NCBI GenBank assembly: GCA_001794055.1
Contig: MGJB01000012.1
Coordinates: 1,124-65,123, forward strand
Direction: 5' to 3'
Length of the DNA stretch: 64,000 nucleotides
Source of the DNA: Candidatus Yanofskybacteria bacterium RIFCSPHIGHO2_01_FULL_41_26
GTDB lineage: Bacteria > Patescibacteriota > Minisyncoccia > 2-02-FULL-40-12 > GWA2-44-9
Shown: positions 30,674 to 41,985 of the stretch, in pieces
How the letters are laid out: each line of letters begins with the position of its first letter
Numbering within the stretch: the stretch's first letter is position 1
Program-made: the position numbers and the translations under genes
The notes under the pieces: model-generated
The model's database searches: none
The model's input: only the letters and a program-made list of their open reading frames with translations
Told to the model about the DNA's origin: nothing

Positions 30674-32032
30674 ATGAATCAAGCCGTATTAAAAAAACAC
30701 GCATCCACATTTCCCAAAATACCTGGCGTTTATATTTTCAAAAATTCGAATAATAAATTGTTATACATAGGCAAAGCTGCCAGTTTAAAAAGCAGAATTA
30801 GTTCATACCTAAAAACAAATGATTTCAGGATTAAAAAAATGCTTGAATTGGCTCGGTCGCTTGGATTTATTAGTACTCCATCAGAAATTGAAGCCTTAAT
30901 TCTGGAATCTCAATTAATCAAAAAATTCCAACCCGCGTTCAATATAACGCTTCGTGATGACAAACAGTATTTTTATGTGGTTTTCACGAAAGAAAAATTT
31001 CCCAAAATTTTTATTTCACATCAACCGCACATATTTAAATATCTAAATATTGAAGTATCGGATTCTGTTGGCCCATTCACTGACGGAGGTGCCCTAAAAA
31101 CAGCTCTGCGTGTTCTGCGCTCAATATTCCCTTATTGCACCTGCAAACAAACTCATCACAATTTCTGTTTGAATTACCATATTGATAAATGTCTCGGATT
31201 TTGTTGTTTAAAAAAACCAAGCCCGGAGACCCAAGGTCGAACCTTAGATTCATATCTGAAAAACATAGAAGCAATCAAAGACATTTTGAGCGGAAAAAAG
31301 AGTTCGCTTATTAAAAAACTTGAAAAAGAAATGAGGAAATCAGCTCAAAATGGTAATTTAGAAAAAGCCATTGAATTGAGAAAAAAAATATCAAACCTAA
31401 AGAGGATTTTCGAAAACGCTAAAATAATAAAAAGCTTCAAAATCTTAGAAGCTCACCATTCAGACTTAGAATCATTATTAAAAATTCAAAAACCAATAAC
31501 CAGAATTGAAGGTTATGATGTTTCCAATATCCAGGGTGCCCATGCCGTCGGTTCCATGGTGACATTTGTTCATGGCCAACCGGACAAAAATTTCTACCGC
31601 AAATTCAAAATTAAAAAAACCAACAAAAAAGAGGAGGGCGATTTATTTCACGATCGTAGTAAAAACACAACTTACGGCGGAGACACAGGAATGTTAAAAG
31701 AAATACTTGAAAGACGCTTTAAACATGAGGAATGGCCATTCCCTGATTTAGTATTGATAGATGGAGGGAAAGCCCAACTGAACGTTGCGCGTTCAGTAAT
31801 TTCCAATTATTATACCACACTTTTAAAAAAACAAAGGGCACCTTTATTAATTGCATTGGCTAAAAATAAAAAACATGTCGGTGAAAAAATATTTATTTCC
31901 GGAAGAAAAAATCCGCTTCCATTAACCAAACTCTCCTCTTCCGACAGAAATCTCCTCCTCCACATAGATTCCGAAGCCCACCGGTTTGCGATAGGATATT
32001 ACAGAAGACTTCACAGAAAATTGTTTAAGTAG
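30674..32032 (+). CDS. uvrC: UvrC-like excinuclease subunit lacking C-terminal HhH domain
   Basis: GIY-YIG N-terminal (PGVYIFKNSNNKLLYIGKAASLKSRISSY...ILESQLIKKFQPAFNITLRDDK), UVR-like helix, RNase-H-like endonuclease block IEGYDVSNIQGAHAVGSMV and DSEAHRFAIGYYRR. Ends at 452 aa. Confidence 0.75.
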   Translation: MNQAVLKKHASTFPKIPGVYIFKNSNNKLLYIGKAASLKSRISSYLKTNDFRIKKMLELARSLGFISTPSEIEALILESQLIKKFQPAFNITLRDDKQYFYVVFTKEKFPKIFISHQPHIFKYLNIEVSDSVGPFTDGGALKTALRVLRSIFPYCTCKQTHHNFCLNYHIDKCLGFCCLKKPSPETQGRTLDSYLKNIEAIKDILSGKKSSLIKKLEKEMRKSAQNGNLEKAIELRKKISNLKRIFENAKIIKSFKILEAHHSDLESLLKIQKPITRIEGYDVSNIQGAHAVGSMVTFVHGQPDKNFYRKFKIKKTNKKEEGDLFHDRSKNTTYGGDTGMLKEILERRFKHEEWPFPDLVLIDGGKAQLNVARSVISNYYTTLLKKQRAPLLIALAKNKKHVGEKIFISGRKNPLPLTKLSSSDRNLLLHIDSEAHRFAIGYYRRLHRKLFK

Positions 32033-33029
32033 GTTTCGCCTTATCACATTCGCCAATCACAATCTTTCTCAATTTATAAGCATTACCGTGAGACAAAAGA
32101 CCTCGATAAGAATTTATTGTTTCTGGTTTTGAACTTTCTTTAATTCTTTTAAACATTCTTCTTTTGGTAGCCGTCCTCAAAACCCTATGATCCAGAAAAT
32201 GCACCCAACCCAGAAAATCCACTCCCGAAGAAAGAGTTTTGATGAATACTTTGTCGGGATGAATATTGAGCTTCAAATGTTCTGAAAGAAAATCCGCTAT
32301 TTTGGGCAATAATTCCTCAAGCCATAATTTATCCTGTGACATAATCACAAAATCATCAGCATAACGGATATAGTATCTCGCCTTGAGTTTGTGTTTAATA
32401 AATTGATCAAATTTATTCATATAAATATTCACGAACAGTTGAGAAGTTAAATTGCCCAATGGCAGTCCTGTTCCGACTCTTACTGAAAAACTATCTATAA
32501 TAACCCAGAGAAGGAACAAGATTTTTTCATCCGATATATAACTTTTTAAGACTGCTTTCAAAGTATCGTGGTTCACGGATGCAAAGAACTTACGAATATC
32601 ACACTTCAAAACCCAAATCGTCTTTTTGTTATTCTCTGAAATTTTATAAAAAAACTTACGAAATTTATCCATTGCCTTGTAGGTGGCTTTGTCATACCGG
32701 CAGGAATATGAGTCAGAAATAAATGTCCTATCAAAAAATGGGTACAAAAACCTGTATAGTGCCCTGTGAAGAACCCTGTCTCGAACAGAGGCCTTGTGTA
32801 TATTTCTCGGTTTTGGGTCTGATATTTTAAAAGCTTCATAGCCATAATGTCGACATGACATCACAACTAAATCATTATGAAGATTCATAATATTAGCCAT
32901 CAGATCCCGCTCAAATTCCTGGACATCTTTGCGTTTTTTCTTGCCTATGATAAACTCCTTCCACGCCTCAAGCAGATTATCAATACTAACTATATCGTTA
33001 TATTTATGAGTGAATTTAATTCTAGACAT
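32025..33029 (-). CDS. Diversity-generating retroelement reverse transcriptase
   Basis: RT motifs: LGNLTSQLFVNIYM (DGR-type I/LGxxxSQ motif 4 in place of group-II QGxxxSP), YADDFVIM (YxDD), 334 aa. Confidence 0.85.
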   Translation of the reverse strand: MSRIKFTHKYNDIVSIDNLLEAWKEFIIGKKKRKDVQEFERDLMANIMNLHNDLVVMSCRHYGYEAFKISDPKPRNIHKASVRDRVLHRALYRFLYPFFDRTFISDSYSCRYDKATYKAMDKFRKFFYKISENNKKTIWVLKCDIRKFFASVNHDTLKAVLKSYISDEKILFLLWVIIDSFSVRVGTGLPLGNLTSQLFVNIYMNKFDQFIKHKLKARYYIRYADDFVIMSQDKLWLEELLPKIADFLSEHLKLNIHPDKVFIKTLSSGVDFLGWVHFLDHRVLRTATKRRMFKRIKESSKPETINSYRGLLSHGNAYKLRKIVIGECDKAKPT

Positions 33030-33087
33030 AATCCTTTAAGCCCCCCCCCGGCTTTTACCGGTACTTCAAAAAGTTAAAGCCGCTTAT

Positions 33088-33429
33088 TTGATTTGGTTTA
33101 AATTTTATCAGATCATACCGAAAGCCCATAGACACACGCTTGGCCAACAGATAGACACGCTTTGGATAGAATTGATAAAGACATTGGCCACGGCGACATT
33201 TCTTCAAAGGCAGGAAAAACTGCCCTATGTCCGTTTGGCTATCCAGAAAGTTGATACGCTAAAAGTGCTTTTGATGATTCTTTGGGAAGCCGGCTCGCTT
33301 CAAAACGAACAATACATTTCTCTTTCAATACCCATCGAAGAGATCGGTAAAAATCTCGGCGGTTGGAGTGGCCAGCTTGAAAAACAAAACTCCCCCACCT
33401 CGCCAAACGGCAAAGCGGGGAAGAAATAA
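33088..33429 (+). CDS. avd: Avd-like accessory (four-helix-bundle) protein of DGR
   Basis: 113 aa, TTG start. IPKAHRHTLGQQI...LAIQKVDTLKVLLMILWEAG...EEIGKNLGGW...GKAGKK resembles the Avd / TIGR02436 four-helix-bundle family. Divergent from the RT. Confidence 0.65.
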   Translation: MIWFKFYQIIPKAHRHTLGQQIDTLWIELIKTLATATFLQRQEKLPYVRLAIQKVDTLKVLLMILWEAGSLQNEQYISLSIPIEEIGKNLGGWSGQLEKQNSPTSPNGKAGKK

Positions 33430-33554
33430 AGATGGTTGCGAGCACGGCCGAGGGGTTGTTGGCGTTACGATCGTTGTCGAGCCAGTTGTAGTTCCAGTTC
33501 CACGAACCGTCGTTGTTGAAGTAGAGGTAAAGCATGTAACGATTGCCGTTCGGG
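33426..33554 (-). repeat. DGR template repeat (TR)
   Basis: 129 bp aligned to VR1 (33915-34043). All 24 mismatches fall on TR adenines of the minus strand. TR frame is Asn(AAY)-rich: SPNGNRYMLYLYFNNDGSWNWNYNWLDNDRNANNPSAV. Confidence 0.8.
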
Positions 33555-33699
33555 CTGCGCAGTATTGTATAGCATGCCTTCATGGTCATCACTGCCCATC
33601 GAGTACTCTCCGGGCTGTATCGCATTCGGTATCATAATACCATAGCATCCCATACCAAGTATCTTCATTTTTTGAAGTTTCTGCATGCACCACACTATT

Positions 33700-33790
33700 T
33701 CAAACGCATGGTCGAAAATATTCTGGATGCATGGATACTGGCTTCGGTAGCGGAAAACACATGGTCGCCCGCATATTCACCTATCGCCGA
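33700..33790 (-). repeat. Conserved ~85-nt element, copy 1 (between VR1 terminator and TR)
   Basis: Minus strand GGCGATAGGTGAATATGCGGG...TTTTCCGCTACCGAAGCCAGTATCCATGCATCCAGA. A near-copy lies at 40795-40880 downstream of the second target. Confidence 0.45.
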
Positions 33791-33814
33791 AAACATATTA
33801 ACACAACGTATTTA

Positions 33815-33861
33815 AATAAAAAACAAATCCTGTCGGGAGACACAGCGTCTCCCGACAGGAT
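33815..33861 (-). terminator. Perfect 15-bp hairpin plus U-tract downstream of VR1
   Basis: atcctgtcgggagac-acagc-gtctcccgacaggat (33827-33861), followed on the minus strand by UUGUUUUUUAUUU, ~50 nt after the target stop. Confidence 0.55.
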
Positions 33862-33903
33862 AAGGGCTAAGTTACAAAGGGCTAGAGCTAACACCCTAAG
33901 AAC

Positions 33904-34584
33904 TTAGTTCTGACTTGCGAGCACGGCCGAGGGGTCGCCGGCGCTACGACCGCGGCCGAGCCAGTCGCAGCCCCAGCCCCACGAACCGCCGCCGTCGAAG
34001 CAGAGGCAAAGCACGCAACGATCGCCGTCCGGGCTGCGCAGTACGACGCCGTCGAAGAAAATGAACTGGATGTCGCCATTCACTCTCTCCTTGAAGCGCG
34101 CCGGGAGTTGTTCGCGGTTCTCCCAGAACGCCTTGAAGGCGTTCTCATCCAGACGGATGCGGCCGTCGGACTTGAGACGCTTGACACGTACCTCGCCGGT
34201 CATGACTGACTCGCCTCGCTTGAGACAAGTGACGAGTTGGACTTTGTCGAGGCCTAACTCGGCCAGCGCGGCCGAACGGAGGTCTCTCTCCTCCTCGCCC
34301 TCCAGACCGTCACCGCTGGCCGGTCCGCGCCATACGCTCCAACCGGCGCCGATGAATGTGGCGGGGTTGAACAGCTTGGAACGGTCAATCGGGATGACGT
34401 GAGGTTTGGCAGAAACGTCGACAGCGATCGGTTTGACCACCGCTCCGCCCCGAAGAATTGTCAGCAACCCCCTGACCAGAGCATTGTTTTCGGCGAAGTT
34501 GTTCAGCTCCGCCGGAGTTCCACCCTCTGCGTCCCATGTAGCACACACCCTGTCCGCGAGCCCAACGCTAAATTCTGACTTCAT
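33904..34584 (-). CDS. DGR target protein 1 (variable repeat VR1 at C-terminus, 33915-34043)
   Basis: 226 aa, GC-rich. C-terminal VLRSPDGDRCVLCLCFDGGGSWGWGCDWLGRGRSAGDPSAVLASQN is encoded by VR1. Start codon uncertain (SD spacing poor). Confidence 0.75.
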   Translation of the reverse strand: MKSEFSVGLADRVCATWDAEGGTPAELNNFAENNALVRGLLTILRGGAVVKPIAVDVSAKPHVIPIDRSKLFNPATFIGAGWSVWRGPASGDGLEGEEERDLRSAALAELGLDKVQLVTCLKRGESVMTGEVRVKRLKSDGRIRLDENAFKAFWENREQLPARFKERVNGDIQFIFFDGVVLRSPDGDRCVLCLCFDGGGSWGWGCDWLGRGRSAGDPSAVLASQN

Positions 34585-34901
34585 GACTCCTCCTTGCGAC
34601 TATCGGATCAAGGTCCGACCTGGTCGCCCACGCGCTTGACCACCGGAATTGGCAGTCATAGCGAAAAATCGTCTATCCGTTCTTAAATAAACCTTTTTTC
34701 GCTATGACCGCTCTCGCAAATAAGTATTTAAGGTACTTCCTAACTATACCTATAATTATAAGCCTTTTCAGCCACAAAGTCAATACCTCGTAATGGTTCA
34801 ATGGCTTGGAATCACTAAGGGTGTAATAGAGGCTACCTACCAGCAGGCAGGTGTCACCGGTTGAATTTTAATCCTTTTGGTGCTATCGTTATAACTACGC
34901 T

Positions 34902-35249
34902 ATGATTGGTTTTGTAATCAGAATATTGGGCAATTCATTGGCTCTATATGTGGCTTATTGGCTTGTTCCCGGCTTTATCGTAAGCGGAAGCTGGAAAGAG
35001 TATTTATTGGCCGGAGCGTTTCTGGGGTTGCTTAACCTTATCGTCAAACCAATCCTGAAAGCGATATCCATGCCGATAATAATCCTGACTCTCGGACTTT
35101 TCATTTTGGTCATCAACGGGTTGCTTTTATGGACAGTTGATTATATATTTGACTTCGTGTCCATCAAAGACGTAACCGCGCTTTTATACGCCGTCATAGT
35201 GGTTGCGATAGTCAATCTGATTATATCAATGACCGCAAAGGCGGTTTAA
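34902..35249 (+). CDS. Phage-holin-family / DUF360 small membrane protein
   Basis: 115 aa, 4 predicted TM helices. LALYVAYWLVPGF...AGAFLGLLNLIVKPIL resembles the PF04020 putative holin family. Confidence 0.55.
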   Translation: MIGFVIRILGNSLALYVAYWLVPGFIVSGSWKEYLLAGAFLGLLNLIVKPILKAISMPIIILTLGLFILVINGLLLWTVDYIFDFVSIKDVTALLYAVIVVAIVNLIISMTAKAV

Positions 35250-41027: not shown

Positions 41028-41735
41028 CTAACTTGCGAGCACCGCCGCAGGATTGTTGCCGTGGAAGCGGTAGCCCAGCCAGCGGTAGCCCCAGCGCCAC
41101 GCACCGTCGTCCCAGAACAGAAACCGGACACACAGGCTGCCGTTGGAGTTGCGGTAGATGGTCCCCCAAAAGAATACGTACTTGCCTTTCCATTCCTCTG
41201 GGATGAGCTCCGGGTGAGCCAGCAGGTAGTCCAGGACATTGGCGTTGAGCACGGGCTCGGACGCCAGCTCCTTACGGAGCTTGTTACCCTCAATGCACTT
41301 GCTGTCCATCTGGTTTGGCGAGAGGTGGAGCTTGATCTTGGACAGGTCCAGTTTGAACTGGCCACCCTTTTTGTGATTCTCCACTCCTCTCCAGCCCTGC
41401 GGCAGGAAGGGGTCGGCGTCGCAGTCGATCACATGTTGGACCAGTCCAACTCTCGCAGCCCCGCAAAGGGCTTGCCGAACGAGTTGTAGCAAGTCCTTCC
41501 GTCCGGCCAGTGCCCGAATTTGTCCGGGTGTGAAGCCGAGCCGAACGAGGACATCCTCGAGTTCCAGTGCGGCCCACACGCTTGGGTCCGTTTTGTGAAC
41601 CCTGGCTGTGGTTGCCTGGCTCCACGAAGACGCCTTCCTCAAGACCTCGAAGTCGTGAGGGGTCACGCCCAACCGGTCTAAAATCTCAACGGTTGCGTGA
41701 AGTTCCGAATGCGGCATTTTGATCAGATCTCCCAT
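41028..41735 (-). CDS. DGR-target paralogue 2 with VR-like C-terminus (VR2, 41033-41158)
   Basis: 235 aa from MGDLIKM, preceded by AAAGGAGA SD. GC-rich. C-terminal IYRNSNGSLCVRFLFWDDGAWRWGYRWLGYRFHGNNPAAVLAS is homologous to the TR/VR1 fold. Nucleotide similarity to the TR is interrupted by non-adenine differences. Confidence 0.65.
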   Translation of the reverse strand: MGDLIKMPHSELHATVEILDRLGVTPHDFEVLRKASSWSQATTARVHKTDPSVWAALELEDVLVRLGFTPGQIRALAGRKDLLQLVRQALCGAARVGLVQHVIDCDADPFLPQGWRGVENHKKGGQFKLDLSKIKLHLSPNQMDSKCIEGNKLRKELASEPVLNANVLDYLLAHPELIPEEWKGKYVFFWGTIYRNSNGSLCVRFLFWDDGAWRWGYRWLGYRFHGNNPAAVLAS

Positions 41736-41985
41736 GATTGGATCTCCTTTCGTCGTTTTTGCTCCCCCTTGTTCAAGAGGTCGCATACGCCAGCGGGCTT
41801 CCGGGTACTTCCGGATTTGCCATAGCAGACAAAGGCCGAATAAATCAGCCACTCTATGCTAAGGCAAATCTCGCAAATTATATGAATAATCAAAGAACTA
41901 TAATATGTTTTAATTATACTCCTTTCCCATAAAAAGTCAAGTTATAAAAGTGGCTTAATTCAAGGTTTTTGATATACTTTCTCTT

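Follow-up and report, generated by a model that had tools for sequence, protein, structure and literature searches.

Gene content of the locus

The analysed window, a stretch of 64,000 nucleotides, originates from a Candidatus Yanofskybacteria genome of the Rifle aquifer. It harbours, in the order target–TR–avd–RT, a target gene whose end carries a variable repeat (VR), a template repeat (TR), an inverted avd accessory gene and a reverse transcriptase (RT) gene. The components which define a diversity-generating retroelement (DGR) are all found and all intact, in agreement with the initial annotation, which had proposed a complete DGR, and this layout is repeated in related loci. The neighbouring genes are uvrC, secG and RNase J, with a tRNA-Leu about 3 kb away; the setting of the element, in a Patescibacteria host, is cellular, not viral. 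The difference in GC content described before was also found: the TR (0.54) and the target (0.62) exceed the RT gene (0.35) and the whole window (0.42).

The RT gene (32025–33029, minus strand), which at its 3′ end shares 8 bp with the convergent uvrC, encodes a protein of 334 aa matching Pfam RVT_1 (E = 2e-23). Its top relative in a solved-structure search is 8ub7_A, a reverse transcriptase of 328 aa (E = 2.9e-37, 132 bits), which we take to be the RT of the Bordetella phage DGR (bRT). Both motifs reported for this gene initially align to their counterparts in 8ub7_A, LGNLTSQ to IGSLTSQ and YADD to YMDD, and the assignment to the DGR class is based on this best solved relative and the motif alignment. 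An affinity to group II intron or retron RTs had been named as an observation that would speak against a DGR. Such an origin, or one from a defence RT system, may be argued from NCBIfam, where the best match is the group II intron RT/maturase model (TIGR04416, 133.6 bits) and no DGR RT model is among the matches. However, this score is far under the model cut-off of 300, as is that of the retron model (58 against 235), and 8ub7_A ranks before the solved group II intron (4e-20, 76 bits) and retron (1e-4, 25 bits) enzymes. Moreover, the protein has no maturase or endonuclease domain, Rfam gives no match to group II intron or retron RNA at the locus, and a TR/VR pair is present; we consider a non-DGR origin of this RT hardly conceivable. 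The RT has at least 8000 homologues, and the named ones among the best 120 of these belong to Patescibacteria; the identity of the relatives is 58–86%. The 80 nearest relatives, all from Patescibacteria loci, served as our comparison set.

The Avd-like gene of 113 aa annotated beside the RT is indeed present (33088–33429). A correction concerns its strand: it is encoded by the plus strand, the RT, TR and target being on the minus strand, and it is divergent from the RT. The protein matches the DGR models Pfam bAvd (E = 8e-10; 39.5 bits, just under the cut-off of 40) and NCBIfam DivGenRetAVD (E = 2e-13; 50.5 bits, under the cut-off of 80), and a search against PDB sequences gave no match. The strand opposite to the RT is used in all 72 of the 80 related loci in which avd is detectable.

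The target gene (33904–34584, minus strand; GC 0.62, GC3 0.73) encodes 226 aa with no Pfam or NCBIfam family. The structure prediction suggested in the initial annotation yielded an N-terminal part of three helices and, carrying the VR, a compact C-terminal domain. The expected resemblance to the C-type lectin is weak: the fold bearing the VR is possibly C-type-lectin-like, and neither Foldseek against PDB nor the family profile against PDB sequences returned anything significant. The 226-aa family of the target is uncharacterised; the known proteins with which it is best compared are the C-type-lectin-fold DGR variable proteins (Mtd, TvpA, the Legionella Lcl/DUF1566 type and the FGE type). 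Its 90% cluster consists of two members on 13 contigs, and the second member (P0181) is a read-derived variant which added no information. A promoter-like site precedes the gene (34755–34783, minus strand; TTGACT, 17-nt spacer, TATAAT), identified by consensus match only at 11 of 12 positions. The GC-richness of the target is not explained by biased erosion of adenines, since its coding strand is poor in A and T to an equal degree (0.21 and 0.19).

The TR/VR pair and its adenine-specific differences

The TR (33436–33564) and VR (33915–34043) form an ungapped direct repeat of 129 bp, both copies being on the minus strand and 479 bp apart. The VR was located correctly at the outset, while the TR had been placed at 33426–33554, which is wrong by 10 nt. 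As annotated, the VR belongs to the 3′ end of the target, representing its C-terminal 43 codons (codons 181–224), and the translations quoted for both repeats are correct. Re-alignment reproduced the 24 mismatches counted previously (23 A>G and 1 A>C), and their tabulation by base assigned all of them to the 34 TR adenines, 10 of which are unchanged in the VR, while the non-A positions are identical in 95 cases out of 95. With 24 mismatches placed at random, the probability of hitting A every time is about 1e-14. Of the 34 adenines, 32 occupy the first or second position of a codon, a stop codon is reachable from none of the 20 variable codons, and the target homologues are hypervariable precisely where the TR has AAY codons. 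Both repeats end with a conserved CGCAA (its G at 33439 in the TR), beyond which the VR continues with GT and the TR with CC, forming an IMH-like conserved 3′ end; in a comparison of 47 loci, the limit of TR-to-VR transfer was mapped to the interval from −6 to +1, counted from this G. No further VR of this TR was found within the window: a partial match at 41072–41111 was discarded as a second VR, being located inside a paralogue (41028–41852) and differing at 25 non-A and 18 A positions.

Adenine-specific TR/VR pairs with the same layout were detected in 57 of the 80 related loci, where 942 substitutions occur at A versus 51 at non-A positions. These data bear on the possibility that the 3′ end of the target was simply duplicated and then subjected to strand-specific G>A hypermutation, the RT being unrelated. 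Taken alone, the 23 one-strand G/A differences may be read in either direction; however, the adenines occupy positions 1–2 of AAY codons, the pattern recurs beside the same RT and avd in the 57 loci, including those with unrelated target families, and the TR forms part of an RNA that covaries. We give this scenario practically no credence.

The initial annotation tentatively attributed the A>G excess to selection or to few homing events. In our comparison, it is a clade-wide bias, since A>G makes up 62% of the 942 adenine substitutions, with A>T and A>C also occurring throughout the clade, and this bias fits the preference of the Bordetella RT: when this enzyme works in E. coli, C is placed opposite A in 59% of its errors (PMC12875486). 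The 23 of 24 observed in the window go beyond the clade rate (P ~2e-4), and therefore either selection or a small number of homing events may contribute as well. The same excess may be invoked in favour of a mechanism specific to the locus, such as A-to-I editing acting on the TR RNA, in place of RT misincorporation. Against this, A>T and A>C are seen not only clade-wide but also in strain L006, whose RT protein is identical to that of the window, the Bordetella enzyme has the C preference given above, and no deaminase gene adjoins the element; we regard editing as very improbable.

The comparison with L006 showed that, from one strain to another, the TR and VR change together. The L006 TR differs from that of the window at four non-A positions, and the L006 VR has the same four changes together with a different set of adenine substitutions (14 A>G, 5 A>T and 1 A>C), while the target gene outside the VR is 16% diverged. 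One can also suggest a fossil or dormant DGR, in which the parts look intact, diversification of the target has ceased in the population sampled, and the VR persists as a frozen allele. This would agree with the consensus VR being identical in six assemblies of the locus from different samples (L001–L005 and L007), with the small target cluster described above and with the 23 A>G changes, which could represent a single selected allele. However, the assemblies are consensus sequences which hide minority VR variants, and every part remains intact, from the RT, avd and TR to the RNA helices and the IMH-like end. The full TR/VR identity at non-A positions, set against the divergence of the rest of the target from L006, and the L006 VR, changed in concert with its own TR, also argue against dormancy, which we regard as unlikely.

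Structure of the template RNA

All features of this section are on the minus strand. The TR is followed by a 12-nt linker, CCATCTTTATTT (33424–33435), and, 13 nt after the TR, by a hairpin (15 pairs, 4-nt loop; 33423–33390) and the U-tract TTTTGTTTTT (33389–33380), both revealed by a terminator scan. The hairpin occurs in nearly all related loci with compensatory changes in 6 of 7 consensus pairs, and with the U-tract, it is likely the end of the TR RNA. The last ~13 codons of avd are the antisense of this terminator-like structure; the avd ORF spans the U-tract in 45 of 45 loci and has a conserved tail (KQNSP...GEK). The TR RNA might also read through the U-tract into antisense avd.

On the other side of the TR, a structured leader (33565–33673) forms a three-way junction, in which P1 (11 bp) closes on the TR 5′ edge, P2 and P3 are hairpins, and the single-stranded stretches ACUUGGU, GAAUAnGAUACA and GGUG are conserved. 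Its helices are paired in 96.8% of cells, versus 78% in shuffled and 27–50% in slid controls, and compensatory changes are present in 20 of 23 pairs. The leader covariance model identifies 33560–33673 in the window (102.8 bits, E = 1e-20); in 70 of the 80 relatives, each locus has a single full-length match, with none elsewhere. A further upstream domain of the same RNA (33674–33738) consists of two nested helices, for which RNAalifold on 47 loci predicted 16 pairs, compensatory changes being present in 15. In all, the covarying structured RNA directly 5′ of the TR comprises about 165 nt. The last 10 nt of the linker are complementary to the leader segment AAATGAAGAT (33670–33661), and we propose that they form a long-range helix, P0, which is paired in 94.3% of cells versus 46–58% with the partner slid and has compensatory changes in 3 of 9 pairs.

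Rfam gave no match for the structured region, including RT-associated motifs such as RT-10: a large conserved folded domain of the template RNA is new to this database. The portions of the published CPR-DGR survey texts available to us (PMC5758913, PMC8144416) mention neither the 5′ domain nor the avd/terminator overlap. Promoter scoring upstream of the TR showed no enrichment relative to a control region inside the RT gene, and a candidate −10 box at 33631–33636 was dropped as a promoter because it lies within the covarying P2 hairpin.

Proposed mechanism and relation to known elements

We suppose that the template is a stand-alone non-coding minus-strand RNA, which would start within 33740–33826, end at the hairpin and U-tract (33423–33380) and comprise the ~165-nt structured 5′ domain, the 129-nt TR, the 12-nt linker and the hairpin. 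RT and Avd would copy the TR into cDNA with misincorporation opposite template adenines, mostly of C (A>G in the gene), and the cDNA would take the place of the VR in the 3′-terminal part of the target. As a result, up to 20 codons could be recoded, giving about 1e18 possible peptides with a stop codon unreachable. The cDNA synthesis, the role of Avd and the homing are inferred from the Bordetella phage system. That the window carries a complete chromosomal DGR of the Patescibacteria (CPR) type operating in this way is, in our opinion, highly probable.

The prototype is the DGR of the Bordetella phage BPP-1, with the order mtd-avd-TR-brt. The window element resembles it in having a homologous RT with the IGxxxSQ and YxDD motifs, Avd, a C-terminal VR, AAY-rich TR codons, adenine-specific changes and a GC-rich conserved repeat end. 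In the phage, a stem-loop that closely follows the TR and a duplex joining segments up- and downstream of the TR are described (bioRxiv 10.1101/2023.10.23.563531); correspondingly, the post-TR hairpin of the window sits where the Avd-binding stem-loop of the phage sits, and P0 would pair sequence upstream of the TR with sequence downstream. Unlike in BPP-1, the avd of the window is inverted and convergent on the TR, and the element resides in the chromosome and has a target other than a phage tail fibre. The RNAs also differ: that of the window has its large domain 5′ of the TR and appears to stop ~55 nt after it, whereas the phage has a 140-nt spacer 3′ of the TR, to which the Rfam RT-10 motif maps.

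In our own reading, the 5′ domain with the P0 helix may act as the counterpart of the phage 3′ spacer RNA. Priming may come from pairing between the invariant UUGG in the leader and the CGCAA that ends the TR; this site stays a conjecture, because the bases involved are invariant and hence cannot covary. Taken jointly, these features tentatively suggest, with less than even probability, that in this clade the template RNA is a circularly permuted form of the Bordetella phage RNA. It may be a stand-alone molecule of ~300–360 nt with the protein-binding and priming domain 5′ and not 3′ of the TR; this domain, of ~165 nt with five covarying helices and absent from Rfam, may be clamped to the TR 3′ end by the long-range helix. 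Reverse transcription may be primed from the UUGG leader on the TR-end CGCAA, the RNA may end at the terminator-like hairpin antisense to the last avd codons, and the GC-rich target and RNA module may be swapped as a unit between strains.

The DGR interpretation of the initial annotation is thereby supported, and the element belongs to a known kind, which is ordinary, since DGRs of this type are common in Patescibacteria. A survey of Patescibacteria (CPR) DGRs was reportedly made by Paul et al. in 2017. The window shares with these elements the host phylum, the groundwater source, the cellular and not phage-borne location, the inverted-avd layout and a target likewise devoid of a recognisable domain or membrane segment. 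There is no essential difference from the “B3 architecture” of CPR DGRs, as presented in the accessible text of Wu et al. 2018 (PMC5758913), or from the “DGR clade 2” of Patescibacteria of Roux et al. 2021 (PMC8144416). Considered simply as a DGR, the locus contributes little, given the abundance of such elements in Patescibacteria (the RT homologues counted above) and the coverage of groundwater CPR genomes of this kind by large surveys. It is useful as a clean reference: the TR/VR pair is strictly adenine-specific, a sister strain shows the TR and VR changing in concert, and a confident structural model is available for the uncharacterised target family. The RNA is the part possibly of specialist interest: its covarying 5′ domain, upstream:downstream helix and TR-end boundary give testable predictions which bear on template recognition by RT and Avd and on priming where the phage-type 3′ spacer is missing. 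The parts of the literature that we consulted contained no biochemical study of any member of this clade.

One more likeness to BPP-1 concerns the hairpin after the VR, which occupies the same place in both elements. In the window, it is a GC-rich target terminator of 16 pairs with a T-run (33827–33861, minus strand), starting 53 nt after the VR; comparable hairpins occur in 55 of 58 loci at a median distance of 47 nt, and that of L006 differs from the window by one compensatory change. Between the target stop codon and the hairpin, degenerate CTTAG/CTTGG-type repeats are found (33862–33903, minus strand), and across the 58 loci, the density of CTT[AG]G after the VR is 1.48 per 60 nt against a background of 0.11.

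The retroelement and its relatives

The only strong direct repeat of the region is an ungapped 129-bp pair (33436-33564 and 33915-34043) with its copies 479 bp apart. Alignment and base-by-base tabulation on the minus strand gave 24 mismatches (23 A>G and one A>C), all with A in the RT-proximal copy, the template repeat (TR), which reproduces the count and the adenine-only pattern of the initial annotation; its translations of the TR and the variable repeat (VR) are also correct, while its TR coordinates (33426-33554) were 10 nt off the true position, 33436-33564. The 95 non-A positions are all identical, 10 of the 34 TR adenines are unchanged in the VR, and 24 random mismatches would all land on adenines with a probability of about 1e-14. 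First or second codon positions hold 32 of the 34 adenines. The 20 variable codons comprise 11 AAY and 9 other A-containing codons; none can reach a stop by mutation, and about 1e18 peptides are reachable. The first reading of the locus as a diversity-generating retroelement (DGR) was correct, and the element is real.

The RT ORF encodes a 334-aa RVT_1 protein, whose closest relative among solved structures is PDB entry 8ub7, a 328-aa reverse transcriptase (E 2.9e-37), which we take to be the RT of the Bordetella phage DGR; group II intron RTs (E 4e-20) and retron RTs (E ~1e-4) score lower. In the alignment with this entry, LGNLTSQLFVNIY is placed against IGSLTSQLFANVY and YADD against YMDD, so that both the SQ motif and the YADD noticed earlier have counterparts there. 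The NCBIfam matches of the RT did not include a DGR RT model, and the group II model of the same collection reached 134 bits against a cut-off of 300. Avd was recognised by Pfam bAvd (E 8e-10) and NCBIfam DivGenRetAVD (E 2e-13), with scores slightly to clearly under the curated cut-offs of both models. The avd gene does lie beside the RT, as annotated, but its ORF (33088-33429) runs on the plus strand, whereas the RT, TR and target are on the minus strand, and all 72 related loci with a detectable avd likewise have it inverted relative to the RT. On its other side the RT (minus strand) converges with uvrC (plus strand, 30674-32032), the two overlapping by 8 bp at 32025-32032; uvrC is called 55 aa shorter in some assemblies.

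Among the 22 contigs that carry the identical RT protein are two NCBI genome bins from the Rifle aquifer, both Candidatus Yanofskybacteria. The DGR is surrounded by uvrC, secG, a gene for an SBP_bac_5 protein and RNase J, with a tRNA-Leu about 3 kb away, and these housekeeping neighbours indicate that the element is chromosomal. At E <1e-20 the RT family runs to at least 8000 homologues; of the 120 best, those with a name come from Patescibacteria. We compared the window with 80 related genome loci (RT identity 58-84%), in 57 of which a TR/VR pair is placed and oriented as in the window, with 942 pooled substitutions at adenines and 51 at other bases. The target-TR-avd-RT order with an inverted avd fits the B3 architecture of Wu et al. 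2018 (PMC5758913). Clade 2 of Roux et al. 2021 is restricted to Patescibacteria and cellular, with targets typically lacking recognisable domains (PMC8144416), and the host of the window fits this description. The clade of this DGR is well described and very abundant, so the kind of element is not new, and groundwater CPR genomes of this kind are already covered by large surveys. The part of the locus likely to be of specialist interest is limited to four clade-wide features, none of which we found described in the DGR literature searched: a structured 5' RNA domain, the overlap of avd with the terminator, a GC-rich exchangeable target-plus-RNA module and the post-VR repeats.

The structured template RNA

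Immediately 5' of the TR, the minus strand encodes a three-way-junction leader of 109 nt (33673-33565), in which an 11-bp helix (P1) closes on the 5' edge of the TR and P2 and P3 are hairpins. Its pairing holds in 96.8% of alignment cells, as compared to 78% in column shuffles and 27-50% with a slid partner, and 20 of 23 pairs have compensatory changes. A covariance model trained on 37 leader sequences matches the window with 102.8 bits (E 1e-20). In 70 of the 80 related loci, as in the window, it gave exactly one full-length match, which lies on the strand of the RT and at an unvarying distance, and there was no further match in the 669 kb searched. Upstream of the leader lies a 65-nt RNA domain of two nested helices (33738-33674, minus strand), where compensatory changes are seen in 15 of the 16 pairs that RNAalifold predicts.

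The other side of the TR carries, 13 nt past its end, a hairpin of 15 pairs plus TTTTGTTTTT (33423-33380, minus strand), which is found in nearly all relatives and has compensatory changes in six of seven consensus pairs. This hairpin falls within the final codons of avd, which runs convergently: the avd ORF spans the U-tract in 45 of 45 loci, and read in antisense the U-tract and both hairpin arms encode the conserved Avd tail KQNSP...GEK. The template RNA as a whole is predicted to be a discrete minus-strand transcript with its start in 33740-33826 and its end near 33380. The two sides would be joined by a long-range helix (P0), proposed from the complementarity of leader AAAUGAAGAU (33670-33661) with post-TR linker AUCUUUAUUU (33433-33424) on the minus strand. 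P0 pairs in 94.3% of cells versus 46-58% when slid; compensatory changes occur in three of nine pairs, a modest support by covariation since both strands are conserved. Just upstream of the leader, a CTTCA (33671-33677, minus strand) is complementary to TGAAG of the P0 5' strand (33661-33668); judging from complementarity, the two could form a local hairpin with an A-rich loop which would compete with P0 as a possible alternative conformation.

In the RNA of the Bordetella phage, Handa et al. described a stem-loop that binds Avd and follows shortly after the TR, and a duplex between TR-upstream and TR-downstream sequences, and predicted both in 207 other DGRs (bioRxiv 10.1101/2023.10.23.563531). 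By analogy, our post-TR hairpin would fit the stem-loop and the long-range helix the duplex. However, the remaining structured RNA of the phage, a 140-nt spacer, lies on the 3' side of the TR, whereas the structured domain of the window is 5' of the TR and lacks an Rfam match; the Rfam search of 31500-35000 on both strands gave no match at E up to 1.

Evidence for transfer from TR to VR

Six assemblies of the window's locus from different samples have an identical VR, so these consensus data show no turnover in the window's population. A seventh contig, L006, encodes an identical RT protein, and its TR differs from that of the window at four non-A positions, exactly the four at which its VR differs as well, while the adenine substitutions of this VR form a distinct set (14 A>G, 5 A>T and 1 A>C). 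Changes common to TR and VR within each lineage mean that information passed between the repeats after the lineages split, and the asymmetry at adenines shows that it passed from TR to VR.

Only 17 differences separate L006 from the window in 7.65 kb, all of them within 33415-33653, the TR RNA region; from 33414 onward avd, RT and about 7 kb of flank are identical, while upstream of 33674 identity falls to 84% for the target gene and spacer (33415-34584 versus L006 1-1060). Since variation is limited to the target and TR-RNA side, this module was exchanged or diverged as a unit with avd, RT and flank unchanged; it seems to have been swapped between strains, with one junction in the post-TR hairpin. 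L006 also has an insertion of about 50 nt, CCCTTTGACAGGCTCAGGGTGTCCTGAGTTTATCGAATGGAC (L006 ~745-796, at window 33674), where the upstream RNA domain meets the three-way-junction leader, so the two are separable.

The A>G bias was initially suggested to reflect selection or few homing events. Its direction is a known enzyme property, since 62% of the substitutions at adenines across the clade are A>G (A>T 20%, A>C 18%) and in a 2026 study the Bordetella RT in E. coli misincorporated mainly C opposite A (59%; PMC12875486). The window's 23 of 24 exceeds the expectation from the 62% rate (P ~2e-4), and to this excess selection or few homing events may contribute.

Across 47 loci, the final AA of the TR-end CGCAA differs from the VR in about 10% of cases versus about 55% further upstream, and the most 3' variable adenine is 6 nt before the G of CGCAA; where the TR reads CGAAA, the VR has CGCAA in 10 of 10. 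This drop-off and the CGAAA/CGCAA pattern place the transfer boundary at the CGCAA motif (G at 33439). We conjecture that the invariant leader UUGG, beside the long-range helix, would pair with CAA of CGCAA and serve as primer; as these bases never vary, such pairing is beyond the reach of covariation. The predicted priming nucleotide is leader G 33656/33655 next to UUG, with template G 33439; cDNA synthesis is predicted to stop at the P1 helix (33565) and to make mostly A>G errors.

A strong hairpin follows the VR (median 47 nt after it) in 55 of 58 loci, 34 of these 55 with a T-rich tail; in the window it occupies 33861-33827 (minus strand). Between the stop codon and this hairpin CTT[AG]G pentamers are 13-fold enriched (1.48 versus 0.11 per 60 nt). 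Degenerate CTTAG/CTTGG/CCCTT repeats with a period of about 8 nt occupy 33862-33903 (minus strand) and likewise the 60 nt after the VR in loci L006-L086, and the invariant leader motif ACUUGGU has the same core as the CTT[AG]G repeats.

The target gene and its composition

The 226-aa target (33904-34584, minus strand) had no match in Pfam, NCBIfam or PDB sequences. In the alignment of its 60 homologues the scaffold is conserved and the hypervariable columns coincide exactly with the AAY codons of the TR, being occupied by D, G, C, Y, S, F, H, R, L, V, I and N, and the AlphaFold2 model predicted from this alignment is confident (mean pLDDT 87.5; ~95 for residues 60-226). In one homologue, P0037, the TR sequence is unmutated and continues into post-TR sequence (…NWLDNDRNADNPSAVLATIFISSPLC…); it is probably an assembly with the VR collapsed onto the TR.

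The GC contrast pointed out in the initial annotation is real: GC is 0.54 in the TR and 0.62 in the target versus 0.35 in the RT and 0.42 in the window, with avd at 0.44. Target GC3 is 0.73, and A and T are depleted equally; given this symmetry in the base-by-base count, adenine erosion is not the cause in the window's target. Among the relatives (L010-L086), the non-VR parts of targets are likewise GC-richer than the RTs (median 0.50 versus 0.35), by more than 0.10 in 46 of 57 loci; a mobile module keeping its composition or GC-biased gene conversion are possible causes.

A second GC-rich gene (41028-41852, minus strand; 274 aa, GC 0.58, GC3 0.70) has a C-terminal 117 aa that is 31% identical to the DGR target and ends in the same terminal motif, ...GTGCTCGCAAGT. 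With 25 non-A differences from the window's TR it is ruled out as a target of that TR; it may be a target that has decayed, or one that belongs to a DGR at another site in the genome. Six repeats of the CTTGG/CCTTGG type follow it.
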